From a virus, in IMG/VR virus record IMGVR_UViG_3300045988_093281: a DNA stretch of 40,142 nt, one strand, 5' to 3'. The position numbers were made by a program, and so were the translations under genes. Below, one piece after another: positions 2,433 through 22,007 of this stretch. How positions within the stretch are numbered: the first letter of the stretch is position 1; every line of letters begins with the position of its first letter. The notes below the pieces were generated by a model. It saw only the letters and a program-made list of their open reading frames with translations, did no database searches and was not told where the DNA came from.

Positions 2433-2461
2433 TTGACTTTTTTACCGTATAGTGTTATTAT
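2433..2461 (+). promoter_or_regulatory. Candidate repressor promoter
   Basis: TTGACT, 17-nt spacer, TATTAT, about 24 nt upstream of the CI-like gene's ATG. Confidence 0.6.
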
Positions 2462-2484
2462 ATGTTCAGACAGGAGGTGATCCA

Positions 2485-2859
2485 ATGTCTCTAGGCAGCA
2501 GAATCCGGTTCGTCCGATCCCAGACTGGTTATAACCAAACCGAATTTGGACGTGAAATCGGAGCTGCGCAAACCTCTGTTTCTGCATGGGAAAAAGACAC
2601 TTCTGTGCCTGTCGATTCTGCCATTCTTAGCATTTGCCGAACGTTCGGAGTGCGGGAAGAATGGCTGCGCACCGGTGCCGAGCCTATGATGGTTCAGCGT
2701 CCCAAAGACGATATCCTGACGGACTTTTTTAATTCCGTTCTGGACGATCAGCCGGATTCCATCCGCAGGCGCTTTGTTGCCGCCCTGTCCGTTCTTACCC
2801 CGGAGGACTGGGAAGCCGCCGCCGCACTCATGCAGAAACTAGTAAAAGGAATGGAGTAG
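2485..2859 (+). CDS. CI-like XRE-family HTH repressor (no S24 peptidase domain)
   Basis: ATG 2485 behind AGGAGGTGA. MSLGSRIRFVRSQTGYNQTEFGREIGAAQTSVSAWEKDTSVP is a classic XRE HTH. The gene is divergent from the early arm. Confidence 0.85.
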   Translation: MSLGSRIRFVRSQTGYNQTEFGREIGAAQTSVSAWEKDTSVPVDSAILSICRTFGVREEWLRTGAEPMMVQRPKDDILTDFFNSVLDDQPDSIRRRFVAALSVLTPEDWEAAAALMQKLVKGME

Positions 2860-4378: not shown

Positions 4379-4426
4379 CAGTCGTCGGGGAGGACGCCAA
4401 AACATAGCCTGTTGAAAACCATGTCT

Positions 4427-4466
4427 TGGAGGAATCAGCATCTTTATTGTATACAATGTCCTCCGG
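4427..4466. other. Candidate attP core for the serine integrase
   Basis: Perfect 12-bp palindrome ATTGTATACAAT (4446-4457), flanked by GGAGGA and TCCTCC, about 90 nt upstream of the recombinase gene. Confidence 0.3.
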
Positions 4467-4552
4467 TTTGTCAACGAAAAAATGTAGAATCTGGATACAT
4501 CGTCCAAAATGATGTCCATGATCGCGTGATAATTTTAGGAGGCTTGTATGCT

Positions 4553-6199
4553 ATGACGCATGGCGCTTATATTTTAGCCCGGTACTCCACCGAGAACCAG
4601 TCCGAGGCCAGTATAGAGGTTCAGGTGGAACGTTGCCGGGAATGGTGTGTAAGGCAGAGCCTCCCGGTTCTGGACGTGTTTGCCGATCGGGCGATTTCCG
4701 GCATGAAGGAGACCCGCCCGGAGTACCAGCGCATGATGCAGGCGTTGTATGCCGGCGGTGCTGACACCGTTGTGATTTATGACCAGTCCCGTATGTTCCG
4801 GAATATGGTCTATTGGTTCCAGTTCCGCGAAGCGCTTCAGCGCATCGGCGTACACGTTGTATCGGTCACGCAGCCTACGGTAGGCGGTGACCTTAACGAC
4901 CCGGCTGTTTTTCTCAACGAGGGCGTTACCGCATTGTTTAACCAGATGTGGGTATTGCAAACACAGCAGAAGGTTAGGGAGGGTGTGCGGCAGCGGGCAA
5001 AATCCGGCAAGCATACAGGTGGTATCCCGGCACTCGGCTATAAGGTGGAAAATGAGCGTCTTGTGATCGACGAGGCGGAGGCTGAAACCGTCCGCCTGAT
5101 TTTCGGGCTGTACGCCGCCGGTCAAAGCTACATTGACATCATTGCAGAGCTGAACCGGCGCGGTCTGAAGACCAAACGTGGCAATGCGTTCGGGAAAAAT
5201 AGCATCCACGATTTGCTGAAAAATGAGAAGTATGTTGGCCGGTCGTTATTCGGTGGAAAACCGGTCAGCTATGACGGCACCCGGAACGCCCACGCCGCAC
5301 GCGGCGAACACCTGGAAATAGAGTGCCCGTCCATTGTCTCGAAAGAATTGTTTGATTCCGTCCAGGCGAGGCTTGCCGCAAATAAACATCAAAATACCGG
5401 AAAGAGGGTTACGGCAGTGGAACAACCGTTGAAGGGAAAGATTTTTTGTGGAACGTGCGGCGGTGCTATGACGATCCACTATAAATATCCCGCTCGTGGT
5501 GGCGACCGATATGAATATTACAAATGCGCCACAAAGCAGCGCGGAAAGGGTTGCTCCGGCATGAGCATCCGAAAAGACGAGCTGGAGGATACCGTAGCAA
5601 TCGCTGTGCTTTCCATGTTAGGCGCCCCAAAATCCCGTGACAAGCTGTTGAGCGTCCTTAGAGACCAGCGCGATAGCCTCCTGAAGATGTCTGCCCCGAA
5701 ATTAAAAGAGTTGCAGGCCGAGTATGACAACCTCGCATCCCAGATAGAAAAAGCGCTGGACGCCGTTATGGCTGGCCTGACCTCTCCGGCCCTAATCGAG
5801 CGTACAAACGCGCTGGAATCTAAAAAAGCCCAGGTTGCGGAAGAAATCGCTTTGTTAAAATCAAACGTCGAACACTCCAGCCTCCGTGACGAGCAGCTTG
5901 CCCCGCTCCTGGATAAACTGATAAAAAGCGCAAAGGACAACCCCTCCGCGATTTTGGCCACCGTCCTCCGCGTTGAGGTCTATCCCGATACAATAAAAAT
6001 ATGGACGATTTTTGACGACGGCCCCGCCCCAGGCGACGGCCCAATCACGAAGTCCAACGTCGCGTCCCTTGTAAAATCACCCGATACCGGCAAATGGTCT
6101 TTAGGTACTTTTGTTGGTACCGCATCTGGCGTACCAACAAATGTACCCAACATTTTTATTGTTGCGGCGTTTTCCGTTTTGCGCGAACGTAAAAAATAA
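4553..6199 (+). CDS. int: Large serine recombinase (integrase)
   Basis: ATG 4553 lies 10 nt after GGAGG. N-terminal resolvase motif YILARYSTENQ, recombinase domain, Cys cluster CGTCGG..YYKC, long C-terminal coiled coil. 548 aa. Confidence 0.95.
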   Translation: MTHGAYILARYSTENQSEASIEVQVERCREWCVRQSLPVLDVFADRAISGMKETRPEYQRMMQALYAGGADTVVIYDQSRMFRNMVYWFQFREALQRIGVHVVSVTQPTVGGDLNDPAVFLNEGVTALFNQMWVLQTQQKVREGVRQRAKSGKHTGGIPALGYKVENERLVIDEAEAETVRLIFGLYAAGQSYIDIIAELNRRGLKTKRGNAFGKNSIHDLLKNEKYVGRSLFGGKPVSYDGTRNAHAARGEHLEIECPSIVSKELFDSVQARLAANKHQNTGKRVTAVEQPLKGKIFCGTCGGAMTIHYKYPARGGDRYEYYKCATKQRGKGCSGMSIRKDELEDTVAIAVLSMLGAPKSRDKLLSVLRDQRDSLLKMSAPKLKELQAEYDNLASQIEKALDAVMAGLTSPALIERTNALESKKAQVAEEIALLKSNVEHSSLRDEQLAPLLDKLIKSAKDNPSAILATVLRVEVYPDTIKIWTIFDDGPAPGDGPITKSNVASLVKSPDTGKWSLGTFVGTASGVPTNVPNIFIVAAFSVLRERKK

Positions 6200-6230
6200 G
6201 GAGAGGGGTTAACCCCTCTCCTTATTTTTA
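6191..6230. terminator. Bidirectional terminator between int and the minus-strand cassette
   Basis: Perfect palindrome ATAAGGAGAGGGGTTAACCCCTCTCCTTAT, flanked by A- and T-runs. Confidence 0.8.
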
Positions 6231-6704
6231 TCCCGCCACAATCCCGTGGTAATACGCTGCCAGCTTGGCTTCCGGCCCCGGCCCGTCCTTGTCAAATAAA
6301 AACGCCTTTGCGAGGTCTGCGTAAAAATCCACCTTACTGCATCCGTGCTTTGTTGCCACGCTGCAATAGTCTGAGTACATCATATTCATGGCGGCATTCC
6401 ATTCCTCCGGCGTGATGTGTTCCATCACTACCCCTGCGGTTTTTGCCGCATCGGTGGTCTGTGCTACCGTCCAATGTCCGCCGGTGCTGCCATCGTCGTT
6501 TTTCATGTGGGTGTTCCACTTCTCCAGGACGTGCCCGTCGAGCTTCTCCGCGTTGCAGACACAGCCCTCCATGTCGTTGACGTGCTCCCAGCACTCAATC
6601 ATAGCATCAACAGCCGCCATGGATCGAGTGCCTACAGGCTGTGCCAGGTACTCGGCCAACTCATGTTCCAGTTTGGCTTTGTACTCCCTCAATTTGGTTT
6701 TCAT
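6228..6704 (-). CDS. 158-aa hypothetical protein
   Basis: ATG behind GGGGG. Motifs GGHWTVAQTT and NMMYSDY look familiar from Firmicutes phage hypotheticals (from memory only). Confidence 0.75.
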   Translation of the reverse strand: MKTKLREYKAKLEHELAEYLAQPVGTRSMAAVDAMIECWEHVNDMEGCVCNAEKLDGHVLEKWNTHMKNDDGSTGGHWTVAQTTDAAKTAGVVMEHITPEEWNAAMNMMYSDYCSVATKHGCSKVDFYADLAKAFLFDKDGPGPEAKLAAYYHGIVAG

Positions 6705-6716
6705 TGCGCTGCCCCC

Positions 6717-7157
6717 TTATGCCAACTTGACCGCACTAGCGCAGACGTGTGAGATGGTACCCGCCACGCCGCCGAGAGTGGCGCTGATTGTCGGCGTTCC
6801 GTTGCAGCACACGGGGATATAGATGGTGGTCTCTGCGTGGATCGTGTACACAGCGTCAGCCGCTACCGTCTCCTGCGCGTTGAGGCATGGCAGTGTTGCC
6901 GCGTCTTTTAACCCCTGTAGCACCACTACGCCGGCAGCGGACGGCGCAAACGTCACGTCATAGGCCACACGATACAGCCCGGAGGAGTTGATCTGAAAGC
7001 CTCCCGTAACCGTATCAATGGAGCATCCTGTATCCGTGTTGAGCACGCCCAGCACGGATACGGGGGTTCCGGTGGCAACAAACGCCTGTGATGCGTCGTT
7101 ATAAGCGTTCTGGGCGGATTTGTAGTGGCTGTTTTTCAGTCGGTTGTTACAACTCAT
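6717..7157 (-). CDS. 146-aa beta-rich protein resembling BclA C-terminal / C1q-TNF-like domains (tentative)
   Basis: ATG behind AAAGGAGAA. Pattern FQINSSGLYRVAYDVTF..VVVLQG..AVYTIHAETTIYIP..ISATLGG..HVCASAVKLA, with alternating beta-strand-like segments. Confidence 0.6.
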   Translation of the reverse strand: MSCNNRLKNSHYKSAQNAYNDASQAFVATGTPVSVLGVLNTDTGCSIDTVTGGFQINSSGLYRVAYDVTFAPSAAGVVVLQGLKDAATLPCLNAQETVAADAVYTIHAETTIYIPVCCNGTPTISATLGGVAGTISHVCASAVKLA

Positions 7158-7171
7158 AGTGTTCTCCTTTC

Positions 7172-7201
7172 AAAAATGCCCGGGGCAATTCCGCCCCGGG
7201 C
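7172..7201 (-). terminator. Rho-independent terminator inside the accessory cassette
   Basis: On the minus strand: GCCCGGGGC-ggaatt-GCCCCGGGC followed by ATTTTTG. Confidence 0.7.
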
Positions 7202-7230
7202 TTATCGCTGTTAGAGCGGTTGATTATTGG

Positions 7231-7872
7231 TTATGCGCACCCGCAGCCGCTATTGCAGCCGCAGAAGGGGGACGGCCCAGCTGTGTAAGTGTAACCGTTG
7301 GGATAACGGACAACGCCGTACATACGGTTGTCCGCTTCCAGCGCTGATACCTTGTCCCTCAGCTGCTGAATCTCATTTGCCTGCATCAGTGCCCTGGTCT
7401 GCTCACCCTCTGCGTGGATCGCCGTGGTAATATCGCAGGTCTGCCGGTCAATCTGTGCGGACAGGTTGGCGGTTGCCAGTCTGTTGTCACAGCAACACTG
7501 GGCAATCTGAGACTGGATATTGTTTCCGGTCTGCATGATTGTGGTGTTGGTGCCCGCCTGCGCAAGCGCAACCTCTTTCCCAAGCTGACCGATGTTGCTC
7601 TGCATTTCATAGCCGAGGTTGCAAATTCCGTTGCCCAGGTTGGACAGCCGGTCGTTGATCTGTCCAAACTGCTGCCCAAACAGAATCTCCTGCTGAGAGG
7701 CCGCAGTTGCATAGCGATCAAGCTCCCCGCTGTTCTGGCGGTTAAACCCGTTCCAGCCGCCGCCCATAATGACAAACAGGAACAGGATAATGATCCACCA
7801 TGCTCCGTTGCCTGCCATCCCGTCAGCGTCTTTTGTTACCGCTGCCAGATCGGAAAGACTGTAGTTTTCCAC
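7231..7872 (-). CDS. 213-aa membrane-anchored Q/N-rich protein with Cys clusters
   Basis: GTG 7872 lies 7 nt after AAGGAG. TM segment AWWIIILFLFVIMGGGW, then QCCCDN, RQTCDI, and a C-terminal FCGCNSGCGCA. Confidence 0.75.
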   Translation of the reverse strand: MENYSLSDLAAVTKDADGMAGNGAWWIIILFLFVIMGGGWNGFNRQNSGELDRYATAASQQEILFGQQFGQINDRLSNLGNGICNLGYEMQSNIGQLGKEVALAQAGTNTTIMQTGNNIQSQIAQCCCDNRLATANLSAQIDRQTCDITTAIHAEGEQTRALMQANEIQQLRDKVSALEADNRMYGVVRYPNGYTYTAGPSPFCGCNSGCGCA

Positions 7873-7922
7873 AAAATCACTCCTTGTCGTTAGATTTTAT
7901 ATAACACCGTAGCGCTCCGGGG

Positions 7923-8147
7923 TTATTTCAAAAATTCGGAAAATGCCGTTGCCTGCTGCTTGAGCTGCTGGAACTGCTCCTGCGTCATTTGTCCGGATGC
8001 AAGCATCTGTTCCACCTGCTGTTTCGCCCCTTCCGGAGTCATTCCGGCGGCGAACTTGCGAAACTCTGAAATCATGGCAAGCGGGTTATTTGCTTGCTGT
8101 TTTTGCGGCTGGCTTTGCCGCAGGAATTGGCTCATCGGGTTTGTCAT
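7923..8147 (-). CDS. 74-aa Gln-rich hypothetical protein
   Basis: ATG 8147 lies 9 nt after GGAGG. Translation MTNPMSQFLRQSQPQKQQANNPLAMISEFRKFAAGMTPEGAKQQVEQMLASGQMTQEQFQQLKQQATAFSEFLK. Overlaps the upstream gene by 62 nt. Confidence 0.6.
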   Translation of the reverse strand: MTNPMSQFLRQSQPQKQQANNPLAMISEFRKFAAGMTPEGAKQQVEQMLASGQMTQEQFQQLKQQATAFSEFLK

Positions 8148-8466
8148 TGATTGCTGCCTCCAATCTTGCAATTCGCTTTTCGAGCGTTTTTACGTCAATT
8201 TCCGGTGTCTCCTGATGCAGAGATATATCAAACGGCTGTGTGGTTCGGCACCCGGCTCCGTCAACCTGACAGAGCCACACAAGTGGTGCTGTATCATCCA
8301 TTGCAACAACCCCGCTATTTGGGGCCATTTGGTTGACCAACGCATTTGCTCCGCCCTGGCCTTTTACATGGACCAACTCATATTTCTGCATCTGCTGGGG
8401 CTGTTGGTTGTAGTAGTTGCCATAGCCCTGATACGGGGCATTGTAGGCTCCATACCCATATGCCAT
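8086..8466 (-). CDS. 126-aa protein with a Tyr/Gly/Asn/Gln low-complexity N-terminus
   Basis: ATG 8466 behind AGGAGGTGAGG. Translation MAYGYGAYNAPYQGYGNYYNQQPQQMQKYELVHVKGQGG..., with a coiled-coil-like LEKRIARLEAAIN. Confidence 0.7.
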   Translation of the reverse strand: MAYGYGAYNAPYQGYGNYYNQQPQQMQKYELVHVKGQGGANALVNQMAPNSGVVAMDDTAPLVWLCQVDGAGCRTTQPFDISLHQETPEIDVKTLEKRIARLEAAINDKPDEPIPAAKPAAKTASK

Positions 8467-8520
8467 CCGCCTCACCTCCTGGCTCTATCATACCGCGCCC
8501 CCTTTGCATCCACCATGCGG

Positions 8521-8590
8521 AAAAAATCCCATAAAAATCTCTTAAAAATATCATTTTGGGCTTGACAATTACACACGTGTGTAATATGAT
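8521..8590 (+). promoter_or_regulatory. Strong promoter with phased A-tracts and a palindromic operator
   Basis: TTGACA (8562-8567), 17-nt spacer, TATGAT (8585-8590). The spacer holds the perfect 16-bp palindrome TTACACACGTGTGTAA (8569-8584). A-tracts start near 8521, 8533 and 8544. Confidence 0.7.
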
Positions 8591-8639: not shown

Positions 8640-8963
8640 ATGGGCGAAGCAAATAAAGTAGAAATGCGAGATAAGTTTTTGGATAACTGTAGGACAGATA
8701 TCCTTGCGTACTACCGCAAGCGCACCGACAACCTGCTTATTGCTATAAAAGAGGTTTGTGATCTTCCAGGCCACGATTCCCAGCCTGCAAGAGATATTCA
8801 GTCGCAACTCAATGCGCTATTTGACGAGAATCTTTTGTACCTGTCCGCTCTTAAAAAATATTACGGAAGCACATTTATAAAACCGAAAAGGACAGAAGAC
8901 ATTCTCAAAACCGTAATCCTCGCATACAAACAATACGAAAAAACTCTTTATGACCCAGCGTAG
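8640..8963 (+). CDS. 107-aa hypothetical protein (helical-looking, lower-GC gene)
   Basis: First ORF behind the 8562 promoter, with a weak GAGG SD. No family recognised. Confidence 0.7.
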   Translation: MGEANKVEMRDKFLDNCRTDILAYYRKRTDNLLIAIKEVCDLPGHDSQPARDIQSQLNALFDENLLYLSALKKYYGSTFIKPKRTEDILKTVILAYKQYEKTLYDPA

Positions 8964-9003
8964 CAAAAGCAGAAGCCCCGCAAAAGACGTGTAAGGAGGC
9001 AGA

Positions 9004-9204
9004 ATGATGGAACAAGCAGAACAGATTAAGGCGTTACGCGCCAGCACCGGATTGTCACAGAAAAAATTTGCAGAAAAAACAGGCGTTCCGGCGCGAACCA
9101 TTCTTTCATGGGAGACCGGAGACAGAAAGCCACCGGCCTATGTGATTCCGCTGCTCAGGCTGGCTGTGCTGGCCTTGGGCGGAGACGAAAAAAGTAATTA
9201 TTAG
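9004..9204 (+). CDS. 66-aa XRE/MqsA-type HTH regulator
   Basis: AAGGAGG upstream. LRASTGLSQKKFAEKTGVPARTILSWETGDRKPPAYVIPLLRL is a typical small HTH. Confidence 0.85.
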   Translation: MMEQAEQIKALRASTGLSQKKFAEKTGVPARTILSWETGDRKPPAYVIPLLRLAVLALGGDEKSNY

Positions 9205-9233
9205 GGAGATACCCAATCAAGGAGGACAACAAG

Positions 9234-9485
9234 ATGGAATATTACATCAACTACCACACCGGTGCCGGAAATGAATGGTTTGACGGCGACCTGGAAGACG
9301 CGATGAAAGCAGCAGAGAGCGGTGTATGCTACACACAGCAAGACGTAACAATCGAGACATACGACGGCAACGAGTTTGAGCGCGTCGCAAAACTGCCTTG
9401 GTGTGGATGCGCACCAGAAGATGAGGATGATGTGTTGATCGACTACGGATCGTTTGGATATTACGGTCAGTGGGTCGAATATTGA
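9234..9485 (+). CDS. 83-aa acidic hypothetical protein
   Basis: AAGGAGGA upstream. Rich in Asp/Glu (EDEDDVLIDYGSFGYYGQWVEY). Confidence 0.7.
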   Translation: MEYYINYHTGAGNEWFDGDLEDAMKAAESGVCYTQQDVTIETYDGNEFERVAKLPWCGCAPEDEDDVLIDYGSFGYYGQWVEY

Positions 9486-9519
9486 TCTTCGGCGTGATGA
9501 CGTATGGAGGCTTGTAAAA

Positions 9520-10110
9520 TTGAGACTTAGAAAGTGTGCTAACTGTGAGAAAATCTTCTCGGCAGCTGGCAAGGCTGTGCGGCTGTGCCCAGAGTGCGCA
9601 GATGCATCTAAACGGGACGTAATCCGCGAGAGGGTGTGTTGTCAATGCGGTGCCGTATTTGACGGAGGCCCAAGAGCATGGTATTGTCCATCCTGCCGTC
9701 TCGAAAGAATGAGACGGCAGGATGCTGAATACAAACGCAAAGGGCCAGCTCGTAAAATCGGAAGCATAGATGTATGCGCTGTGTGCGGAAAAGAATATAC
9801 CGTAAACAGCGGCCGTCAGCGTTATTGCCCCGCCTGTGCCGAAAACGCGATTAAAGACATCGACCGTGCATCGTCTCGTGAGTACTTTGCTCAGCATAAG
9901 GATGAGCACTACGAGTCACGGAAGGATGCTGTAACGCTTTGCGTAATTTGTGGTAAACCGGTGCCAAAAGGCACGCCGAGCGTTACGTGCTCTAAAGAGT
10001 GCGCCACCTTAGTCCGAAAACGGCACAACCAAAACGCAGATTATAAGCGCGGAAAATCCAACTCGCCATCCAAAATCATCAGATTAGACATCGCCACCAG
10101 AAAGGAGTAA
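9520..10110 (+). CDS. 196-aa protein with four CxxC..CxxC zinc-ribbon units
   Basis: TTG 9520 lies 9 nt after GGAGG. Units are CANC..CPEC, CCQC..CPSC, CAVC..CPAC, CVIC..CSKEC. Confidence 0.7.
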   Translation: MRLRKCANCEKIFSAAGKAVRLCPECADASKRDVIRERVCCQCGAVFDGGPRAWYCPSCRLERMRRQDAEYKRKGPARKIGSIDVCAVCGKEYTVNSGRQRYCPACAENAIKDIDRASSREYFAQHKDEHYESRKDAVTLCVICGKPVPKGTPSVTCSKECATLVRKRHNQNADYKRGKSNSPSKIIRLDIATRKE

Positions 10111-10113
10111 GTA

Positions 10114-10428
10114 ATGACAACACATACGATCTATCAATTTGGCCAGCTTTACCGCGCCCTGACCGACGCAACCCGTCCGCATGGGGCGAATGACGCAGAA
10201 TATCAGAACGCCCTGCATCGTCCACTGACGGAGATTGCAAAGGCTATCAAGCTGGCCCACCAGCTACATGTAATGACCCCGGAACTCAACAGCCTTTGCG
10301 CCGAATTCCTTGACGATGTGTCGCTGGAAGATCTCGAGGCGGAGCAATCCGGCACTGGCCTCACACTCCCACAGCAGGGCACGTTTTCTCTCGGGTATGC
10401 AAAGGGGAAAACTGTTAAGGATAAATAA
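10114..10428 (+). CDS. 104-aa hypothetical protein
   Basis: AAAGGAG upstream. Last gene before the bidirectional terminator. Confidence 0.7.
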   Translation: MTTHTIYQFGQLYRALTDATRPHGANDAEYQNALHRPLTEIAKAIKLAHQLHVMTPELNSLCAEFLDDVSLEDLEAEQSGTGLTLPQQGTFSLGYAKGKTVKDK

Positions 10429-10440: not shown

Positions 10441-10475
10441 CAAAAAATCCCCCACCTTTCGGTGGGGGATTTTTC
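10441..10475. terminator. Bidirectional terminator
   Basis: AAAAA-ATCCCCCACC-tttc-GGTGGGGGAT-TTTT. Confidence 0.8.
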
Positions 10476-10671
10476 ATACCCGTTTCATTTTATTTTTTAC
10501 CCGTCCGGAAATGTGCCGTATCCCACCAATGGAATACCCCATCGCGTCGCAGCAACTTTCGATCGTTATTCCCGCTGCCCGCAGGTCGAAAAATTCCCGC
10601 TCCAGACTGGTAAAATTGCAGGCTGCCCGGAAATGCTCCAACTCCGGAACTGTATAGTCCTTGATCTGCAT
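10474..10671 (-). CDS. 65-aa sigma-70 region-4-like / LuxR-like HTH protein
   Basis: ATG 10671 lies 8 nt after AGGAGG. Translation MQIKDYTVPELEHFRAACNFTSLEREFFDLRAAGITIESCCDAMGYSIGGIRHISGRVKNKMKRV. Confidence 0.65.
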   Translation of the reverse strand: MQIKDYTVPELEHFRAACNFTSLEREFFDLRAAGITIESCCDAMGYSIGGIRHISGRVKNKMKRV

Positions 10672-10686: not shown

Positions 10687-11718
10687 TTACCGATTCAGGA
10701 TAATCAGCACTCGCAATGCACTCAGCGGCATATCCAGCACCATATCATCGCCGCTGCCGCTTTTGCCCTTTAGCTTCCCGGCGTCCACCAGCTTGTCCAG
10801 CTCCTTGCGGTACCCATTCGGCACCTCGCCCAGGGTGTGATACCACGGCTCAATGGGCTGTAGCTTGCCGTCACTGCCCAGTCCGACAACCATGTTGGTC
10901 TGCATATCGCCGTCGGCACCCAGATAATAGGTGTCACCTCCGGCCTCTACCTGCCACGTATTGCTCAACATATAGCCCTCCTTGTCAAAGCTGTACCACT
11001 TGCCGTCGATCTTCGCCCAGCGGCCCTTATAGTAGGTATTGGAGGTATCCGCATACCACCAACCCTTGCTATCCTGATGCCAGCCTACCGTATATTTGCG
11101 GCTGCTGGTGACACTGCCGGAGTGCGCCATTACGTTGATGTCAAACCGTCCAGAGCATCCGGGGATTGTGTAGCTGCTGCTGTACTGCCAAAAGTCCCAG
11201 CTGTTGGTGCTGGCCTTGTCGGCATACTGGGCATACCACTGGGCGTATTTGCCGATCCGATCCTTGTCCACATAGTTGCGGAGATAATCTAAGTTATAGT
11301 ACACGCCAGGAGTATAGCCCCCTGCTTTGACAGCCTCGCAAAATGCCACTGTATGGGCGTTAAACGCTTCCCTGCCCAACGTCACGCCCTGTTTTTTGGC
11401 GTAATCGACGGTATCATACTCAAAATCGTAAAACACCGGAAGGGCAATCTTGTCCTTGTAGGGCTCCAGCATCTTGAGAACAAATGCCGCCTCATTCTTC
11501 GCCCCGGAAGCGTCCAGCGCATAGGAGAAATGATAGATGCCCACATGGATGCCCTGCGCAAGGGCACCTTCGATATTGCGCTTAAAATAGGTATCAGTGT
11601 GGCCGGTGCCGTAGCCGGTGCGGATGATTGCAAAGCTGATACCCGCCTTTTTGATCTTTGCCCAGTCCAGAGCGCCGTTGTGCTCGGAGACATCAATGCC
11701 AATGAGTTTAGCCATCAT
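10687..11718 (-). CDS. Endolysin: GH25 muramidase plus cell-wall-binding repeats
   Basis: GIDVSEHNGALDWAKIKKAGISFAIIRTGYG is a GH25 N-terminus. The C-terminus carries GW/WY repeats (GWWYADTSNTYYKGRWAKIDGKWYSFDKEGYM). Confidence 0.95.
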   Translation of the reverse strand: MMAKLIGIDVSEHNGALDWAKIKKAGISFAIIRTGYGTGHTDTYFKRNIEGALAQGIHVGIYHFSYALDASGAKNEAAFVLKMLEPYKDKIALPVFYDFEYDTVDYAKKQGVTLGREAFNAHTVAFCEAVKAGGYTPGVYYNLDYLRNYVDKDRIGKYAQWYAQYADKASTNSWDFWQYSSSYTIPGCSGRFDINVMAHSGSVTSSRKYTVGWHQDSKGWWYADTSNTYYKGRWAKIDGKWYSFDKEGYMLSNTWQVEAGGDTYYLGADGDMQTNMVVGLGSDGKLQPIEPWYHTLGEVPNGYRKELDKLVDAGKLKGKSGSGDDMVLDMPLSALRVLIILNR

Positions 11719-12530: not shown

Positions 12531-14174
12531 TCACCTCCCGTATATGGAGAGTGTCCCAGCGACGGCCTTGTACAATGGGTTTGGGACCATGAGCGTTATT
12601 TTTGTTGCAGGGCCAACGCCGAGTATGCCGCTCTGGGAGGATGAGATATACGCTGATACACTCCCAGTTGGATCAGCTCCGGCGTGGGTGTTCTGCAGTC
12701 GCGGTTCCCAAAAAATTCCGTTGTATCTTACGGTGCCGGCAAAATTCCAGCTGTCTGAGCTGCTGCTTACCTGTATCGGCACTAAGTTCGCGCAGATCCT
12801 TTGATCGTTGATATACAGGGCATAATAGCTCTGGATTGTAGCTGTGCTTTTTACCCCCAGACTGATAAAAATCAGCTCTGTGAGGTTTGCAAGCTCGGAC
12901 TGGGTGATAACGTGTACGGAGTTTTGCTCAAAGTCGATTTGGGCGATTAAAGTAGGCTCTCCTTTAGCGCCCCCTCCACTCGCCATATCCACCGGCACCC
13001 ACGCCGTCGGCACCCCGTTAGCATCCACCGCAGAGATTTTAACGGTCTGGCCGACGGTAGCGCCGGTGACATCCAGCCCGGCACCAGCGGGGCCTGTAGG
13101 GCCTGCCGCGCCTGGGTCTCCCTTTGGCCCCTGTGCCCCGTCAAACTCCCCGCTTGCTTTTGCTTGCGCTAGTGCGGCATTGGTGGCGTCCTGTAGCCCG
13201 TCCTGCGTAATGTAGTCGCCCTTTGGCTGTTTTGCATCAAATAATGGCCCCAGCGTCTTCTGTGCCTCGGCCCAGGCACTATTTACAGCGGACGTAACCT
13301 CATTCGGCGTTGCGGCTCCGATCCCGGAGGCGGTGATGGTCACGTGCCCGGTCTCACCGTTGACGGAGGATACACCGGCAACGCCGCCACCGTCTTCAAG
13401 CGCCTTAATGCGTTCCAGCAGCTTCGGGTCGATGTACTTTGTGTCGAGCGTTTTAATGTCCGCAAAGTCCCCTTCGATTTTCCATCCCTTAATGTTTACC
13501 ATGTGGTCAAAAGCAGGGAGGAGATCGATGCTGTTGTCGAAAATCAGGTATGGGTCTGGATTACCGTTTCCGTTGGCATGCCCACAGTAAGGGGCTGGCT
13601 CTATCCCGTCTTTGCCCTCATTAAGGTCTTTGCAGACAAATTCCTCGCCAACGCCAAACCCGCTACCTCTATCGTAGTCTACCCGGTAAGTGTTCCCGAC
13701 GATGAGTCCTAATTCGGGTGAGAATTTCCCATAAGTCTGTTTGATGACCCTCACGTCGTGCTTTGTCCCAACGTAGTGTGTCCTTCCGCGCACATAGTCC
13801 GCCGCACTGTCGTCATTTTGATCCCAGTTGGCCTGCACGTTTGCAGCTTCCAGCGCCGTAATCCGCTTATCCAGCTGTTCCCACGTTTTGATCTCCGTTT
13901 GCGTGTATGCGTATCCATCTGGTTTCGGCCTGCGCTCCACCGGGATTCGCGCGGCATCCAACGTGTGATCCTCTTTATACGTCCAAAGCAGGATGTCCTT
14001 CCCGGTTTGCAGCAGTTCATTTGGCACTTTGACCCACCGGTCTGCTACCGGAAGCTCCACCGCAGAACTCCCAAACTTAAAGTGCACCGTCGGCACATTT
14101 TCCGGTACCTTAACTTTCTGCTCTGTGTCCCACTGCCAGAATTTTAACTGCCCGTTAGATAACTCAATTACCAT
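12531..14174 (-). CDS. Tail fibre / receptor-binding protein with a collagen-like segment
   Basis: 547 aa. G-X-Y run GAQGPKGDPGAAGPTGPAGAG. Last large gene of the tail module. Confidence 0.8.
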   Translation of the reverse strand: MVIELSNGQLKFWQWDTEQKVKVPENVPTVHFKFGSSAVELPVADRWVKVPNELLQTGKDILLWTYKEDHTLDAARIPVERRPKPDGYAYTQTEIKTWEQLDKRITALEAANVQANWDQNDDSAADYVRGRTHYVGTKHDVRVIKQTYGKFSPELGLIVGNTYRVDYDRGSGFGVGEEFVCKDLNEGKDGIEPAPYCGHANGNGNPDPYLIFDNSIDLLPAFDHMVNIKGWKIEGDFADIKTLDTKYIDPKLLERIKALEDGGGVAGVSSVNGETGHVTITASGIGAATPNEVTSAVNSAWAEAQKTLGPLFDAKQPKGDYITQDGLQDATNAALAQAKASGEFDGAQGPKGDPGAAGPTGPAGAGLDVTGATVGQTVKISAVDANGVPTAWVPVDMASGGGAKGEPTLIAQIDFEQNSVHVITQSELANLTELIFISLGVKSTATIQSYYALYINDQRICANLVPIQVSSSSDSWNFAGTVRYNGIFWEPRLQNTHAGADPTGSVSAYISSSQSGILGVGPATKITLMVPNPLYKAVAGTLSIYGR

Positions 14175-14187
14175 TCCCTCACTCCTT

Positions 14188-15513
14188 TCATATCCTGTAC
14201 AACTTTGGTTCCGCCGAAATCCCGCTCACGTCCATGCTGCTTGTCAGCCACATATTCGCGTAAATTCTCGTCGTTTTCGTCAGCGTAAACGTCGCGCCGC
14301 CTCCAATGTCCCACACTGGCGTTCTCTCCGCCGTGCTGGCCCCGTCGCTGCTGGTCGTCGTGCCTGTGATCCCGCTCCCGGTGTCTGCATCATAGAGTCG
14401 GATACCCCACATGGAGTGGCTTGCATTTTTCGTGTTGGTTCCCGTCCCGTTGACAAAACCGGATAACTTGTAGACCCCCGGCGGCAGCTGAACTGGGCAG
14501 GATTTTGAAATCAGCGTTTTTGTGATGCCGGACGTTGCCTGTCCGCTCAGGCTCAATTTTTTCCCGGTCAGTGTGAACCCCAGCCCGTTTGTGGTGCTGT
14601 TCCCTTGCGGTATTCCCGACCATACGTCAGGGATAAGGTCTGTTGCCCCGGCGCTTAAATCTCCGCGTGCGCCGTTTTCCAGCGCCCCGTACAGTGGCCT
14701 CGCGTATAAAAACGGTGCTCTTGCTGACGTGCTTGTTACAATCAGGTTTCCGCTTGCCGGGTAACTGGTAATGTTTAAAAATTTGTCCTCGCTAATCATC
14801 ATGCCCACGTGGCTGATCCCGAAATATCGCTTTGGATACACCAGTGTCCCGTTGTCGTTCGTCTTGTAGAAAAAGCACAGGTCTCCTGGTTTTACATCTC
14901 GCTCCCCGGGCCAGAAGGTCAGTGACATTCTGGCATAGTAGGCCGCAATGTCCGAGGCTGTCACAATCCGCAGGTACCCGTCCGTTGTCTTGTATTTGTC
15001 CCCGGTGTAAGCAATATCTGCGTCCATCGGTTGTTTGTCAAAAAACGGTTCCGCCCATGCGTCATTTGTCGCTTTCACGTTCTGTGGAGCATAGGACTGA
15101 TTCGCCCCGGTGATCCCCGCAAACGGGCTTTTGAGGTACCCGATCCCTCGCAGCACAAAACCTGTGTAAGATGAGCAGTCCATAACGCCCGCTCCGCTTT
15201 CATCGGACAATCTTCCGGTTCCGTCCGCGTTGGTCGGCTTCATCGGGCCGTATCCGTCCTGGTATGCAAACGCCCTTGTTCCGCTTGCCTTTGCGTTCCA
15301 ATAGGTCATGCCGCAGACCACCGCCGCCATTGCCCCGTCAAAGTTTGAGCTGTCCGGCGATACCCCGCCGTTTGTGTTGATGTTCGGCGGCTTTGCCCAA
15401 ATCGTTTCAATTTCCGCCGGGATGTTCTCCCCTAGAATCGTTTGCGTTCTGCGCGTCTTCTCGCGGATTTTCTCCGTGATTGCCGCCAGCGTCTCCCGCT
15501 TGATGGTGTACAT
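14188..15513 (-). CDS. Tail-associated NlpC/P60-type cell-wall peptidase with a C-terminal beta-rich domain
   Basis: Cys motif VMDCSSYTGFVL and His motif GISHVGMMI, with the spacing expected of NlpC/P60. Confidence 0.75.
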   Translation of the reverse strand: MYTIKRETLAAITEKIREKTRRTQTILGENIPAEIETIWAKPPNINTNGGVSPDSSNFDGAMAAVVCGMTYWNAKASGTRAFAYQDGYGPMKPTNADGTGRLSDESGAGVMDCSSYTGFVLRGIGYLKSPFAGITGANQSYAPQNVKATNDAWAEPFFDKQPMDADIAYTGDKYKTTDGYLRIVTASDIAAYYARMSLTFWPGERDVKPGDLCFFYKTNDNGTLVYPKRYFGISHVGMMISEDKFLNITSYPASGNLIVTSTSARAPFLYARPLYGALENGARGDLSAGATDLIPDVWSGIPQGNSTTNGLGFTLTGKKLSLSGQATSGITKTLISKSCPVQLPPGVYKLSGFVNGTGTNTKNASHSMWGIRLYDADTGSGITGTTTSSDGASTAERTPVWDIGGGATFTLTKTTRIYANMWLTSSMDVSGISAEPKLYRI

Positions 15514-16763
15514 TACGTTGCTACCCCCTCAGCCGCCGTCAACCGCTCCCAGACCTTTTTTACGATTTCTTCCGGTGTCGTAGCCTCCTGCTTTTCTTTC
15601 GCTATGCTCTTGGTCAGCTCCGTTGCCGTGGCCCCCAGCGTTACCGTGCTTTTGTCCGGTGCCCCCGGCTCCAGGTGAATTTTGAGACACGGCATATCCG
15701 TCTCCAGATCGTGCGGCGCCGACCTCACGTGTACGATTTCCCCCAGCTGGATATCGTCAATCTCAATGTTCACAATGTTCAGGTCTACGGCGTTCAGTTC
15801 AATGGTCGTCGTGGCCTTCACCTGGTTTTTTAGCCACGCTTTTGCCTTGGTCAGCAGGTTGCTGGGCAGCGTCACATCGTCCCATACGTTTGTCCCCCAG
15901 ATTTTTCCCCAGACCTTGATACCGTCCGCATCCTCCACATACATGGTCCCGCCGTTGGCCTCCCGCACCGTCACCCGGTTCCCGTGCCACAGTGTCAGCC
16001 CGGATGTTTCTGGTTCTTCCGTATATTTGTCGTAGGTGTTTTCGTTTGTTCCGTTTTCTTCAATCCGCGCCCCGAACGGGTATAGCACCGTTACAATGTT
16101 CTCGGTGTCAATGTGCTCCTCCAGGTCAAGCAGATTTTCTCCAAATTCCACGGTCTGGTTGCTTTTTTCGGTCAGCTCCGCCAGGTAGTCCACATAATAT
16201 TTCCCGTCCGCCTCCCTGACCATTACGTACCCGCCCAGCATATCAATTAGCTTGCCCGAAACCGCCTCCCAGCTGGATATACTGGACTCGCTGGATCGTA
16301 CCAGCACCCCGTTGTTGTCCGGGTCTGTCACCGTCACAGTCCCCAGGTATAGCTTCTTGTAATCCTCCACCTCGCTATTGTGGGTTTCCAGGACAAACTT
16401 CAAAAAGTTTGTCACGGTTCCCTTGTACGCAAACGGCGGTAGCATCGAGTCGCAAAGGAACGCCAAGTGCCCCTCACAGTACACCTCCACATTGTTGTAA
16501 AAGTCCCGCGTGGTGTCCGCTACCCGTCCCCGAAATACTTTTCTTCCGCCGTAGGTTGCAATTACAACTGTCCCCAGCTGTGTTACCGTATCATACCCAG
16601 GGTTTGTAATCGGCACCGTGAACTTCATCGACCCATGAGCGTTTACCTCCAAGTCAATTTCTATTTCCGCTACCACGCGCCCTTGATCGTACAGATTCGG
16701 GTGGTCAATGCATACATCCCCCGCATAAACGGCCCACAGCGCCGGGTTGCTGTTTACGTTCAC
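15513..16763 (-). CDS. Tal-type tail tip protein (prophage tail endopeptidase-like N-terminal domain)
   Basis: 416 aa, directly after Dit. YCEGHLAFLCDS.. and LYLGTVTV.. resemble siphovirus Tal N-terminal domains (from memory). Confidence 0.75.
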   Translation of the reverse strand: MNVNSNPALWAVYAGDVCIDHPNLYDQGRVVAEIEIDLEVNAHGSMKFTVPITNPGYDTVTQLGTVVIATYGGRKVFRGRVADTTRDFYNNVEVYCEGHLAFLCDSMLPPFAYKGTVTNFLKFVLETHNSEVEDYKKLYLGTVTVTDPDNNGVLVRSSESSISSWEAVSGKLIDMLGGYVMVREADGKYYVDYLAELTEKSNQTVEFGENLLDLEEHIDTENIVTVLYPFGARIEENGTNENTYDKYTEEPETSGLTLWHGNRVTVREANGGTMYVEDADGIKVWGKIWGTNVWDDVTLPSNLLTKAKAWLKNQVKATTTIELNAVDLNIVNIEIDDIQLGEIVHVRSAPHDLETDMPCLKIHLEPGAPDKSTVTLGATATELTKSIAKEKQEATTPEEIVKKVWERLTAAEGVAT

Positions 16764-17815
16764 AGGCTTCCCCTCCTGTACCGGATCGTCACAGTCTCGC
16801 CGCCGGTCACTGCGTTCTTCGCCGCGATTGCAAACGTCACCGGGTCATTTCGGATTATAATGTTTTCGTTGAAGTATGTTCCTTCGGTCACGTCATATCC
16901 CTGCCCGTTGACCGTGATCTTTACGTCTGCGGTTGTCTCAATGGTTGGGATTACCGGCTTTGCCGAGCCTTCCACCGTAATGGTCGCGTTCGCTTGCAGC
17001 GTCCCGTATATTTTTACGTTGCTTACATCTCCCGTCACGGTTACTCTGTATATTTTTCCCCAATCAATTGTGGTTTTTGCTTTTTCCAGCGTCCAGGCGT
17101 AATGTGTGCTCTGCACCTGCTCCAGGCTTCCCACGCTCTTATCCCCTGCTTTAACCGCGATGCTTACTTTCCTCCCGGCTTTTTTGTCGTATTCCACCGT
17201 TAGCGCCTTGAAAAGGCTCCAGTCAACGCTCCGCACGTTTTTAGACCCGAATACGATCACCGTTTTCTTCGCGTCACCGCTGCCGGAGTTTAGCGTATAC
17301 ATATCGTTCCTGACGCCGATCAGCCTGATTTTCTTTTCGCTTTCCGCCGACAGCTCCACCGCATATTCCCGTTCTGTTTTTTCTGTCTTAAATGGCCGCA
17401 CCGTCGCCCGGAGCGTCGGAAATGCCATTGTCCCATCCGCATCCCATTCGTCCACAGTCACCCGCCCCTCATAGGTATAACCCGGATCGTCGCTGCACGT
17501 AATTTCGCATCTTCTGCCGTGTACCGCGTTCATGACGTCCGTGTAGATTTTGTTCCATTCCTTCCGTTTCTTCCGGCAAAGGAACGGAAATTCAATTTCT
17601 CTGTCCTGGTAGGTCACTGTCCCGATGGTGCTTTCCGTCAGGTCAAGGCTTCCGTTTCGCCCTGGAACCTCCACCATATAGGTGTTTGGTTCCGGGGCGG
17701 AGACCACCACCGGCTCCGTCAGGTACAGCCCCCAGTCCTCATAGGAGTTGTACGTTACCGTCTCTCCGTTTGCCTCTCTTGTGAAATCTACCGAATGGTA
17801 GTGATTAGTTGCCAC
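16760..17815 (-). CDS. Distal tail protein (Dit) with a C-terminal extension
   Basis: 351 aa, directly after the tape measure. The N-terminus SVDFTREANGETVTYNSYEDWGLYL..PGRNGSLDLTE is typical of Dit. Confidence 0.8.
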   Translation of the reverse strand: MATNHYHSVDFTREANGETVTYNSYEDWGLYLTEPVVVSAPEPNTYMVEVPGRNGSLDLTESTIGTVTYQDREIEFPFLCRKKRKEWNKIYTDVMNAVHGRRCEITCSDDPGYTYEGRVTVDEWDADGTMAFPTLRATVRPFKTEKTEREYAVELSAESEKKIRLIGVRNDMYTLNSGSGDAKKTVIVFGSKNVRSVDWSLFKALTVEYDKKAGRKVSIAVKAGDKSVGSLEQVQSTHYAWTLEKAKTTIDWGKIYRVTVTGDVSNVKIYGTLQANATITVEGSAKPVIPTIETTADVKITVNGQGYDVTEGTYFNENIIIRNDPVTFAIAAKNAVTGGETVTIRYRRGSL

Positions 17816-20800: not shown

Positions 20801-22007
20801 CCGCTCCATAGCCGAATGCGGTCATAGCGTCCACAACCATATTGGTTGTGTCCCCCAAGTCTTCGCCGGACGCCGATGCAAGGCTCATGGTGCCTGCCAT
20901 GGAGTCCAGCATTTCGTCCACCGTCCAGCCCGCCTGTCCCATGACCTGATAGGCATTCGCCACGTCCTGGGCCATAAACACCGTGGTAGCGGCATAGTCC
21001 TTTGCCTGGGCCTCCAGCTTGCCCATTTCGTCCGTGGTCGCGCCGGATACCGCTTGCACCGTTGCCATTGTGTAGTGGAAGTCTGCCGATACGTCCACGC
21101 ACTCTTTCAGTGCCGCCGCCACCTTGCGGATACCCTCTACAACGCCGGATGTGACCAAAATGGAGGACAGTGTATCAAAGGATTCGCTGACACGGGATGT
21201 GCTGTCTGCACCGTCCTCCATGTCCGCTGCCGCTTCTTTGACCTCTTTTCCCATCTTGTCAATGGAGGTTGCGCAGTGGTCTGAGGCGTTCTTTGCTTCT
21301 TCCAGATATCCGTTTGTTTTATTGATCTCAACAGTCAGGTTCGCTTCCTCCGCTTTCGCGGTGTTCAGCTGCTGCTGCCATTTTTCTGTTTTATTTGTTG
21401 TGCTCTGGAGCTTTCCTTCCTGTACGGTAAGGTCTTTTGTCAGTTCTGCTTGTGTCTCCAGTAGCTTTCCGGTTTCCTCCGCCGCGCCGTTTGTACTTGT
21501 GTTCAGCGCTGTCATTTTCCCGTTGAGGTCATTGATCTCTTTTTCAAGCTCTGCTTGTTTGCTGGATGTATCCTCAGTCGTGTTTTTCAGCGCTTCCAGC
21601 TCTGCTTTTGCTGCATCTAGCCGGTTTTTGTAGGTAAGCCACTGCTTCCCGCTCTTTTGCGTCGCCGCGTCCGTGGCTTCCAGCTTTTTTCTGTTGTCTT
21701 CCAGCTGGTTCTTGGTGTTTTCAACCGCCGTTTTCATCTGGTCTTGTGCCGTCTTACCTGCCTTAATGGCATTGTTCAGCACTGTTATTTTTTCTCGCTG
21801 CTTTTCAAGGGTGCGGGTGAGGACGCTCAGTTTCTCGCTAAGCGCTTCCTGCGAGTTGGCATTGGTCTGGAATGTCGCCGTAACCGCTGCCATTTCCGTT
21901 TTCAGCGTTTTCAGCGCCGTGTTGATGCTTGTCACCGCAGACCTGTACTGTTTTTCGCCCTCAATTGAAACCTTGGTCGCAATACTTCTTCCGGTGCTTT
22001 TCGCCAT
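17805..22007 (-). CDS. Tail tape measure protein (TP901-type core)
   Basis: 1400 aa with extended coiled coils. Core block ATTVFMAQDVANAYQVMGQAGW..ALGIMANNGLKAEMSGTAL, and Gly/Ala-rich TM-like segments. Confidence 0.95.
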   Translation of the reverse strand: MAKSTGRSIATKVSIEGEKQYRSAVTSINTALKTLKTEMAAVTATFQTNANSQEALSEKLSVLTRTLEKQREKITVLNNAIKAGKTAQDQMKTAVENTKNQLEDNRKKLEATDAATQKSGKQWLTYKNRLDAAKAELEALKNTTEDTSSKQAELEKEINDLNGKMTALNTSTNGAAEETGKLLETQAELTKDLTVQEGKLQSTTNKTEKWQQQLNTAKAEEANLTVEINKTNGYLEEAKNASDHCATSIDKMGKEVKEAAADMEDGADSTSRVSESFDTLSSILVTSGVVEGIRKVAAALKECVDVSADFHYTMATVQAVSGATTDEMGKLEAQAKDYAATTVFMAQDVANAYQVMGQAGWTVDEMLDSMAGTMSLASASGEDLGDTTNMVVDAMTAFGYGADQAGHFADVLARASADTNTSVALLGNSFQACATTAGGMGYSIDDVAVALGIMANNGLKAEMSGTALTTALTRMSGANETANGAMEDLGLTMFNASGQAKPLGQFLGELRDSFAGMTEEQKINNAYMLAGQRGMKGLLAIVNASDEDWNNLTESIANCSGAAEDMSNIKLDTYTGQVKLAKSALEGLEIAVGDKLTPALGELAEGFTGVLTGMTKFVNENEEAVPVITGVVAALATFTTGITVATTAVKVFQLVTSTLGGVINPVAIGVGALSTVLGVATAAFIGGRDEANEWSSAVNEAKKSVEGWEETEATMEASQEKTMGLLQSLISLTGQENKTAAQTAQIKTTVDQLNNSVEGLNLSYDEETGKLNMTTEALEAYVRTMMLQQKAEAIVDQMVQLESNRYTLEKQLADAQEELAEAQENTNKAIEDGTASYDDMHSREVAAQEKCDELQASLEDVNGSYASLEGQYNSITGEVEEYNSKTEDASDQTGELGDIAENTAGAAEELTEEMQEANDALADVTDKAADATESGGDLRSVYEDLESEFEKYKDTASEAAVKTAEIQLAALNLRATNEELITQYPGLVAGVESLGIPLEDLSQWLINNEISAEEWGEGVNSVKDSIINGFQKLSTDAEISLSDMAENLEYNVQAYQNWDQNLTDLMADAVANNDQGAIDLINVMRNLGVGYAAQVQAMVDDTSGNYEKLAAAMGEVGETGGWAFYNSTNESLARVDGLYGEYSASGAETLQTGDYEGAGAANAEDYAGGVEGQTGTVETAAEAVSDAGAGAAEGEKSKYRDAGGSAITQFKIGMLGKQESVKVAAQTIAASAASQFNSVSWYNVGYSIAAGVARGINANSWMIRQAAENAAQDAYKAAKDRLGIRSPSRVMAEVGRYYDEGFAQGITEHISEVTKAANRMSRESAAGVYGAGNRAETEKKSKESGNGNQKLEKILEQYLPEIVEKMDNGSGITAKGLAKAVAPYIDSDLGSKERRKRRGN

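Follow-up and report, generated by a model that had tools for sequence, protein, structure and literature searches.

What is the function of the five minus-strand genes at positions 6228-8466 of IMG/VR virus record IMGVR_UViG_3300045988_093281 (hereafter the window, the whole 40,142-nucleotide stretch analysed), for which a role in modifying the host cell or spore surface had been proposed from the letters alone (the original prediction)? The genes, named here by the lengths of their products (p126, p74, p213, p146, and p158), make up the body of an accessory module, self-contained and portable, that tailed phages carry; this module is real, conserved, multi-gene, and uncharacterised, and a spore-surface function is probably wrong. 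Tentatively, and at less than even odds, the products are read as a regulator-gated complex made very late in infection at the inner face of the membrane, in which p213 would be a stalk and p146 a knob, acting at lysis or release. The cassette is organized as follows, in its direction of transcription:

8476-8500, minus strand: cassette promoter region, with a -10-like TATGAT at 8492-8487.
8086-8466, minus strand: p126 gene, 126 amino acids (aa) from the ATG at 8466, beginning MAYGYG (mechanically called open reading frame [ORF], 8086-8475).
7923-8147, minus strand: p74 gene, 74 aa, ATG at 8147 behind GGAGG (mechanically called ORF, 7923-8171).
7231-7872, minus strand: p213 gene, 213 aa, GTG start behind AAGGAG.
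7172-7218, minus strand: intergenic hairpins at the p213/p146 gene junction.
6717-7157, minus strand: p146 gene, 146 aa, jelly roll of the BclA C-terminal domain (CTD)/ExsFA/C1q-TNF type.
6228-6704, minus strand: p158 gene, 158 aa, DUF7841.
6201-6220, no strand assigned: bidirectional terminator between the p158 and serine integrase genes, closing both.

To follow the cassette beyond the window, 114 related loci were collected by iterative searches, and gene counts were taken from 80 IMG/VR relatives; an alignment-based locus search had no conserved stretch of 7-10 residues to work from. The module order was fixed, running from a small helix-turn-helix (HTH) protein through p129/p126, p82/p74, p213, and a small beta protein to a variable tail, which consisted either of DUF7841 or of a rubrerythrin-like 102-aa protein with a 104-aa protein. 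Both p129 and p82 were present in every relative scored (77/77 each), the BclA-like beta protein was present in 59 of 59 and DUF7841 in 31 of 59; a beta protein came after p213 in 77 of 77 loci, and gene order was kept in 78 of 79. All five ORFs in the window were confirmed, each with a plausible ribosome-binding site (RBS), with starts at 8466 for the 126-aa and 8147 for the 74-aa protein, and the motifs reported for them (QCCCDN, QTCDI, FCGCNSGCGCA, GGHWT, and NMMYSDY) were all found. Given the size of the p213 family (3990 clusters at 90% identity and 878 at 50%) and the kept order of its neighbours, the five ORFs are real genes and not chance.

The position of the module is equally recurrent. 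A recognisable lysis gene lay upstream in at least 49 of 73 loci and an opposite-strand integrase gene downstream in at least 32 of 50 (24 tyrosine and 8 serine), so the lysis-integrase slot originally assigned to the cassette is typical of the relatives; in the window itself, however, the cassette is not directly beside the lysis genes, being separated from the endolysin gene by the HTH gene (10474-10671), a terminator, and a plus-strand block (8640-10428). The proposed location at a prophage end likewise held only for relatives: the window looks like a complete circular-type contig of ∼40.1 kb whose first 48 nucleotides (nt) equal its last 48, whereas in integrated copies (loci L026 and L030) the cassette is the last element before host DNA. 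It was intact in two decayed copies of one prophage of which portal and holin fragments are left (L027/L028), and in L011 it stood alone beside an rve-family insertion sequence (IS) on a 655-kb bacterial contig that also encodes BofA. In Clostridium perfringens siphophages, the version of the module comprises six genes (146, 77, 204, 119, 65, and 132 aa); it is present in 17DYC, HMD-PC1, PMQ04, XP41-N3, and CPD1 and absent from phiCP39-O, 26F, 13O, 34O, and 9O, with flanks 93-95% identical. The block is thus an indel among near-identical phages, and the module is therefore dispensable for virions and lytic growth, which upholds the view that these are not core virion, lysis, or replication proteins; the suggested moron slot is borne out too, and terminators bound the unit.

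The backbones that carry the module are diverse. The tail proteins of phages sharing it were at most 33% identical to those of the window or gave no match, megablast of the window against GenBank phages returned no match, and in Dulem virus 36 the module follows the receptor-binding protein gene. No coupling was seen between knob type and tail or receptor-binding type. Reverse-transcriptase genes adjoin tail or tropism-determinant genes at two loci (L026, 4930-6027; L033, phage cr52_1, 2744-3769) and may belong to diversity-generating retroelements.

Homologues of p213 also extend beyond Firmicutes phages, to the crAss-like phages cr273_1 (gp13) and cr52_1 (gp23), Bacteroides phage C3_41T2LP, and the Vibrio N4-like phage 12VC501. 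The Gly-flanked anchor, QCCCxNR, a downstream QTC-type Cys, and the Tyr/Pro/Gly/Cys-rich C-tail were all kept in the first three and only partly in the Vibrio homologue. In Bacteroides phages, p213 neighbours a small beta protein related to the C. perfringens/Dulem type, a p126-like protein with beta domain and coiled coil, and an Arg/Asp/Tyr-rich protein, and a DUF7841 homologue adjoins the p213 homologue in at least eight crAss-like genomes; a core of p213, small beta protein, and DUF7841 is thus common to crAss-like and other Bacteroides phages. An endolysin gene lies five genes off in cr273_1 and a LysB-like gene upstream in cr52_1. Several crAss-like module homologues carry in-frame TAG or TGA codons (cr273_1 gp08-gp14, locus L007; cr52_1 gp20-gp25, locus L033); recoded stop codons reportedly mark late genes, which suggests late expression here. 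Public labels for these homologues include "spike protein/glycoprotein", "outer capsid protein/viral fiber", and, for a DUF7841 homologue, "RNA polymerase sigma factor/ubiquitin-like"; they look like over-interpreted remote hits.

The most informative product is p146, for which a C1q/BclA-like fold had been anticipated. An AlphaFold2 (AF2) model built from an alignment of 27 homologues (mean predicted local distance difference test [pLDDT] score, 89.7) is a ten-stranded jelly-roll beta sandwich, and Foldseek placed it closest to the BclA CTD in the PDB (3tyj/1wck, E 3e-8, template modelling [TM] score 0.72-0.77), in agreement with the anticipated fold. The other top matches were ExsFA/BxpB, then C1q-like proteins, TNF ligands, and phage fibre knobs (PRD1 P5, the Sf6/HS1 needle knobs, and those of cyanophages A4 and A-1(L)), among 235 PDB matches at E<=1e-3. 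By sequence, p146 fell below the gathering threshold of Pfam BclA_C (PF18573; 22.4 bits against 38, E 1.2e-4), with C1q at E 0.05, and several homologues at 50-72% identity carry PF18573; gut phage contigs commonly hold free-standing entries of 130-150 aa named "BclA protein". Both ends of p146 are conserved (N-terminal MSC.., C-terminal HVCASxVKLA), and neither GXX collagen repeats nor an exosporium-targeting motif was found in its 146 residues, which begin MSCNNRLKNSHYKS. The beta proteins that follow p213 fall into three subfamilies, and knob and stalk identities are decoupled: in L009, a p213 81% identical is paired with another knob type, and in L022, p213 is 52% and the knob 72% identical. 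All TNF/C1q domains known so far are obligate trimers.

The p213 protein opens with an acidic N-tail and a Gly-flanked hydrophobic anchor (WWIIILFLFVIM); an extended helical stretch rich in Q/N follows, in which the motifs QCCCxNR and QTC are invariant, and the C-tail (YPNGYTY..SPFCGCNSGCGCA) is rich in Tyr, Pro, Gly, and Cys. The anchor has 12-13 strongly hydrophobic residues between Gly-rich stretches, with a 19-residue hydropathy window of 1.9-2.6 in members from Firmicutes phages and 0.9-1.1 in crAss-like and Vibrio members, and its N-flank is acidic (net -2 to -4). Hydrophobic residues recur at ∼3.65-residue spacing, beating shuffles (p<0.05) in four of six diverse members. No Pfam family covers p213, and a Rosetta-stone search found no domain fusions among the best 150 of the 878 clusters (60-266 aa). 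Several candidate resemblances were set aside: a Collagen_mid match, compositional and seen in none of 13 other family members; an NCBIfam ZorA match in the coiled-coil tail (20.6 against 190 bits), attributed to coiled-coil composition; and a profile alignment to the influenza HA2 fusion peptide and helix A (E ∼0.5), an architectural echo and not evidence.

The remaining products are p126, p74, and p158. p126 combines a disordered Tyr/Gly/Asn/Gln tract (1-28), a beta-alpha-beta-beta-beta domain (30-82), a helix (92-106), and a disordered basic tail; its modelled core is confident (AF2 pLDDT ∼95), a fold search of the model against the PDB gave nothing significant (best E 0.1), and relatives occur also in the C. 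perfringens phages and Dulem virus 36. p74 is small, helical, and Gln/Met-rich (22% Gln; 8-18% Met and 12-23% Gln across the family), with NPM/NNPL motifs, and its gene overlaps that of p126 out of frame (p74 in +1) by 62 nt in the window and by 56-62 nt at all loci examined. Its resemblance to the C-terminal transmembrane-domain-binding region of SGTA (hhalign probability 23%) is a weak lead only; STI1/SGTA-type domains bind hydrophobic segments, and on this likeness p74 could be a chaperone for the p213 anchor. p158 belongs to DUF7841 (Pfam PF25223, residues 53-152, 75.4 bits against a cutoff of 25.2, E 5.6e-21) and has an N-terminal helical extension. The translations of p126, p74, p146, and p158 show no N-terminal hydrophobic signal sequence, and Cys numbers 5-9 per protein, p126 and p74 excepted. 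Scans of Pfam, PHROGs, NCBIfam, and PADLOC yielded only DUF7841, three PHROGs of unknown function (phrog_16490 for p213, phrog_22984 for p74, and phrog_21718 for p126), and sub-threshold matches; PADLOC gave no match at E<=0.01 for any of the six module proteins, and sequence and profile searches of p213, p126, p74, and p158 against the PDB found nothing significant. A literature search on DUF7841, on BclA or exosporium with prophage, on crAss annotations, and on the carrier phages found no functional study.

The control of the cassette is read from its surroundings, which in the window comprise the following:

2452-2859, plus strand: CI-like repressor gene.
4412-6199, plus strand: large serine recombinase (integrase) gene with Resolvase, Recombinase, and Zn_ribbon_recom domains, convergent to the cassette.
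8640-10428, plus strand: inserted five-gene block between the p68 terminator and the cassette promoter.
10441-10470, minus strand: intrinsic terminator of the late operon, after the p68 gene (stem 10470-10447).
10474-10671, minus strand: gene for the LuxR/GerE-type HTH regulator p68/p65, 65 aa.
10687-11718, minus strand: GH25 endolysin gene with cell-wall-binding repeats.
12531-22007, minus strand: tail module, identified by size and position with no family search, whose 1400-aa ORF occupies the tape-measure position.
24572-29368, minus strand: presumed head and packaging block of large ORFs, assigned by size and position and not searched.

The choline/cell-wall-binding repeats of the endolysin are typical of monoderm hosts, and the host of this phage is presumably monoderm. 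The contig junction (1-137 and 39983-40142) falls inside an 18-nt tandem repeat that codes for hexapeptide repeats (..VFGEARVSGDAWVFGEA..) of a minus-strand ORF spanning it.

The small HTH protein, p68, begins 13 nt past the endolysin stop codon (start and RBS as read from the sequence) and is therefore the last gene of the late operon. Its family profile (A4) matched LuxR-type tetrahelical HTH structures in the PDB (VpsT 8e-7, RhlR 4e-6, NarL-C 3e-5, and GerE 1e-4); the window protein as a single sequence had no Pfam match at E<0.1, and homologues gave faint or weak GerE or Sigma70_r4 matches. By profile, p68 is a predicted stand-alone LuxR/GerE-type HTH regulator. Its wiring to the late operon speaks against expression of the cassette from a repressed prophage. 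A p68 gene precedes the cassette in most loci, and in L009, L016, L020, L006, and L030 a gene of this type is appended to a holin or lysin gene. The terminator that follows it in the window has the stem ATCCCCCACC-GAAA-GGTGGGGGAT and then T6, and an equivalent hairpin lies 3' of p68 in most related loci. In L020, L025, L026, and L017, the stretch from the p68 stop codon to the terminator holds direct hexamer repeats at a spacing of roughly one helical turn (TGACGA x3, ATAGCAG x2, and TGACAC x2); they are candidate binding sites of a LuxR-type regulator.

The cassette has clear terminators on both sides (10470-10447 upstream and 6220-6201 downstream), whereas its promoter is only a -10-like box, TATGAT, ∼8 nt 5' of the RBS and with no good -35. 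A similar box (TATGAT/TACAAT/TATAAT) occupies the equivalent place in related loci, right after the terminator and before the p129 RBS, and we infer a promoter that depends on an activator. Within the cassette, the internal terminator predicted earlier was found as a 10-bp stem with nine G-C pairs (7201-7178) and a T-run after it, in front of which stands a small CGCT-N5-AGCG stem-loop (7218-7206); the hairpins at 7172-7218 serve as an internal terminator, an attenuator, or an mRNA-stability element, and Rfam returned terminator-like fragments only. A GC-rich hairpin occurs at the p213/beta-gene junction in nearly all Firmicutes-phage loci, even in C. perfringens phages of 30% GC (seen in L001, L003-L006, L009, L016, L019, L020, L022-L024, L026, and L030); in divergent cassettes, a CGCT-N5-AGCG stem-loop often stands in front and the T-tract is not always present. 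The junction hairpin may be more than a simple terminator, and its retention exactly between stalk and knob genes suggests controlled stoichiometry.

Between p68 and the cassette, the window carries additional cargo. The plus-strand block at 8640-10428 is lower in GC content (0.47 against 0.54) and has five genes, for a 107-aa protein, an XRE HTH protein (9004-9204), an 83-aa protein, a 218-aa multi-zinc-ribbon protein (9454-10110), and a 104-aa protein. Within its promoter (TTGACA-17-TATGAT; 8562-8590, plus strand) lies an 18-bp perfect palindrome, ATTACACACGTGTGTAAT (8568-8585), a likely operator. Among relatives, the gap between the HTH and p129 genes is bimodal (75-340 nt or 650-2260 nt), and the site is therefore a recurrent insertion hot spot. 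One prophage lineage (L030, 2113-7536) has ORFs of 1807 and 383 aa between its holin and HTH regulator genes, further large cargo at the equivalent locus.

How these parts might work together can be proposed only tentatively. p68, made with the lysis genes, would activate the insulated cassette at a very late stage of infection. p213 would insert in the manner of Pf3 coat protein, N-out/C-in, leaving the short acidic N-tail external and the long, Cys-rich helical portion cytoplasmic, an orientation that the anchor and the net charge of -2 to -4 favour. Firmicutes are said to exclude Cys from exported proteins, and the Cys-rich set together with partners that lack signal sequences favours a cytoplasmic location there. 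p213 may be an oligomeric helical stalk, probably trimeric, and its ∼3.65-residue periodicity is consistent with a helical bundle; its Tyr/Gly/Cys-rich C-tail would dock a trimeric C1q/TNF-fold p146, possibly by shared metal-thiolate sites. p126, with its aromatic-rich disordered N-terminus and coiled coil, p74, and DUF7841 would serve as assembly, adaptor, or chaperone subunits, and p146 would be an exchangeable recognition knob. Since the p213 anchor is conserved across unrelated tail proteins, the universal target appears to be the bilayer and not a virion socket. Much as T4 lysis inhibition does among non-essential late membrane systems, such a complex could adjust when lysis occurs or how the membrane is disrupted, and it would not remodel the spore or cell surface. 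A more specific version, itself doubtful, is an undescribed and widespread late "split fibre" on the cytoplasmic side of the host membrane, switched by a LuxR-type regulator, that would control lysis timing or progeny release in Firmicutes siphophages, crAss-like phages, and other Bacteroides phages and would bind or sense a variable intracellular partner; if true, it would be a new functional class beside holins, antiholins, and spanins.

Several points weigh against a late complex at lysis. No gap in lysis function needs filling, given the ordinary endolysin of this phage and the holins of its relatives. Activation of the cassette by p68 is proposed from position only, the periodicity of p213 gives modest sequence support to a helical stalk, and none of p213, p126, p74, and DUF7841 has function-bearing homology in Pfam, NCBIfam, PADLOC, or the PDB. 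The C. perfringens block lies among early-type genes and the Vibrio N4-like p213 homologue at the early left end, positions that suit an early or exclusion role better. The intact cassettes in two decayed prophages and beside an IS hint at a benefit to the host more than at a purely lytic role; the deletions are recent, though, since intact prophages have identical protein sequences.

The two main rivals are exclusion or anti-defence and an accessory fibre, with spore-surface and metal roles ranking lower. In the first, rather unlikely in our estimate, the module, expressed early in infection or from the prophage, would act in superinfection exclusion or another phage-versus-phage or anti-defence function, its variable knob recognising and blocking incoming phages or a host defence component. 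The terminator-bounded moron slot between the lysis genes and attP/int, the indel among close relatives, and the p213 membrane anchor suit this role, as do the early-region positions just described and a fast-diverging, exchangeable knob of arms-race character. The intact copies in L027/L028 and the solitary one in L011 also speak for it, but retention in remnants is explicable by terminal position and recent deletion. Against exclusion stand the absence of PADLOC matches, a regulator tied to the late operon, the missing -35 of the promoter, the recoded stops of crAss-like homologues, which point to late expression, and the presence of the module in strictly lytic crAss-like phages.

Slightly less probable is an accessory virion fibre, in which p213 would be a trimeric coiled-coil shaft plugged into the particle, p146 a receptor-binding knob, and p126 and p74 chaperones or adaptors. 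The TNF/C1q fold is usual at phage fibre tips, as the Foldseek matches to PRD1 P5, Sf6/HS1, A4, and A-1(L) illustrate, and apparently late expression with an exchangeable knob would be expected of a fibre; the position after the receptor-binding protein gene in Dulem virus 36 and the fibre and spike labels in crAss-like phages agree with it, and even dispensability has a precedent in lambda Stf. However, the 12-13 strongly hydrophobic residues near the p213 N-terminus would go to the membrane, and that N-terminus is conserved over unrelated tail modules with no co-variation with a virion socket. The cassette also lies outside the structural block, behind the lysis genes, with a terminator and a dedicated regulator, and comes and goes among near-identical siphophages.

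Far less probable is a spore coat or exosporium unit, or a cell-surface unit of lysogenic conversion, expressed in the mother cell of a sporulating Firmicute, which was the function first suggested for the cassette. It is true that BclA-CTD and ExsFA/BxpB, to which p146 is structurally closest, are exosporium proteins, that Cys and Tyr/Gly are abundant in the sequences, that the sporeformer marker BofA is encoded on at least one host contig, and that C. perfringens sporulates. The stand-alone GerE-like HTH regulator and the lack of signal peptides, as in coat and exosporium proteins, are compatible with a mother-cell role and equally with any cytoplasmic late function. As a general function, however, this does not stand: the module occurs in crAss-like and other Bacteroides phages, and p213 in a Vibrio phage, whose hosts are diderm and do not sporulate; there is no collagen-like stalk (the Collagen_mid match being isolated to one p213 sequence) and no BclA N-terminal targeting motif, and Pfam BclA_C stays below threshold. 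The co-transcription of p68 with the endolysin gene places the regulator in a late lytic operon, with no obvious sporulation promoter, and the p146 fold is equally typical of phage fibre knobs. A spore role confined to particular sporulating hosts may still exist. Least probable of all is a metal-handling or redox accessory whose metallothionein-like CCC and CxC clusters would sequester or deliver metal during infection: the CCC and CGCNSGCGC motifs of p213, the rubrerythrin-like 102-aa protein that replaces DUF7841 in many cassettes (Pfam E 0.0068), and a ferritin-domain protein flanking the C. perfringens block suggest it, but the rubrerythrin match is below threshold, the ferritin-like gene stays in phiCP39-O without the cassette and so is outside the module, and the jelly-roll knob, membrane anchor, and regulator are left unexplained.

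Whichever reading holds, the p213 family, which counts ∼4000 clusters at 90% identity, keeps the same partners in phages that abound in the human gut, crAss-like phages included, whose module members are labelled only "hypothetical" or DUF or, misleadingly, "BclA protein", "spike glycoprotein", or "sigma factor/ubiquitin-like". One regulator-gated module offers a common, testable framework for these orphan genes, and BclA/C1q-like phage genes should not be taken for spore or exosporium factors. Control of lysis timing, release, or exclusion by the module, if real, would bear on gut phage-host dynamics and on the engineering of crAss-like and Clostridia phages.

Among known systems, the late membrane complex proposed here resembles viral stalk-plus-knob fibres (reovirus sigma-1, adenovirus fibre, PRD1 P5, the P22/Sf6 needle knob, and cyanophage Pam3/A4), in that a helical, probably trimeric shaft bearing a TNF-like, trimeric, exchangeable head is likewise proposed; here, however, shaft and knob are separate polypeptides, the shaft opens with a transmembrane-like segment, and the genes are dispensable and outside the structural module, with an anchor that does not co-vary with virion proteins. 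With the Bacillus exosporium proteins BclA-CTD and ExsFA/BxpB (PF18573), p146 shares the jelly roll (TM 0.70-0.77, E ∼3e-8 to 1e-7), and, like ExsFA/BxpB, it is stand-alone and ∼150 aa; some close homologues pass BclA_C, and one is publicly named "BclA protein". Identity is only 13-17%, however, and p146, which has neither the collagen repeats nor the exosporium-targeting N-terminus, is phage-encoded beside a membrane protein, with equivalent modules in phages of non-sporulating hosts. The lambda i-spanin Rz and the T4 holin T with its antiholins RI and RIII share with the module a single N-terminal anchor, a long helical domain, placed cysteines, lysis-gene proximity, apparently late expression, and laboratory dispensability, but there is no sequence or profile similarity, and no known lysis system has a jelly-roll partner. 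A two-component spanin was considered and rejected: Vibrio genes 9 and 10 do not encode lipoproteins, no partner with a lipobox turned up, and the window host is presumably monoderm.

The regulator and the slot have counterparts of their own. Like GerE/LuxR-type regulators, p68 is ∼65 aa, consists of the HTH only, and has the GerE architecture, although as a single sequence it is below Pfam thresholds and its gene closes a phage late operon. With morons such as lambda lom and bor and the toxin genes downstream of lysin in Firmicutes prophages, the module shares the slot between lysis genes and attP/int, terminators, a promoter-like element, presence or absence among close relatives, and portability across backbones; it differs from them in a G+C content that matches the phage, in being a co-evolving set of six genes found also in strictly lytic crAss-like phages, and in having a regulator wired to the late operon and not to lysogeny.

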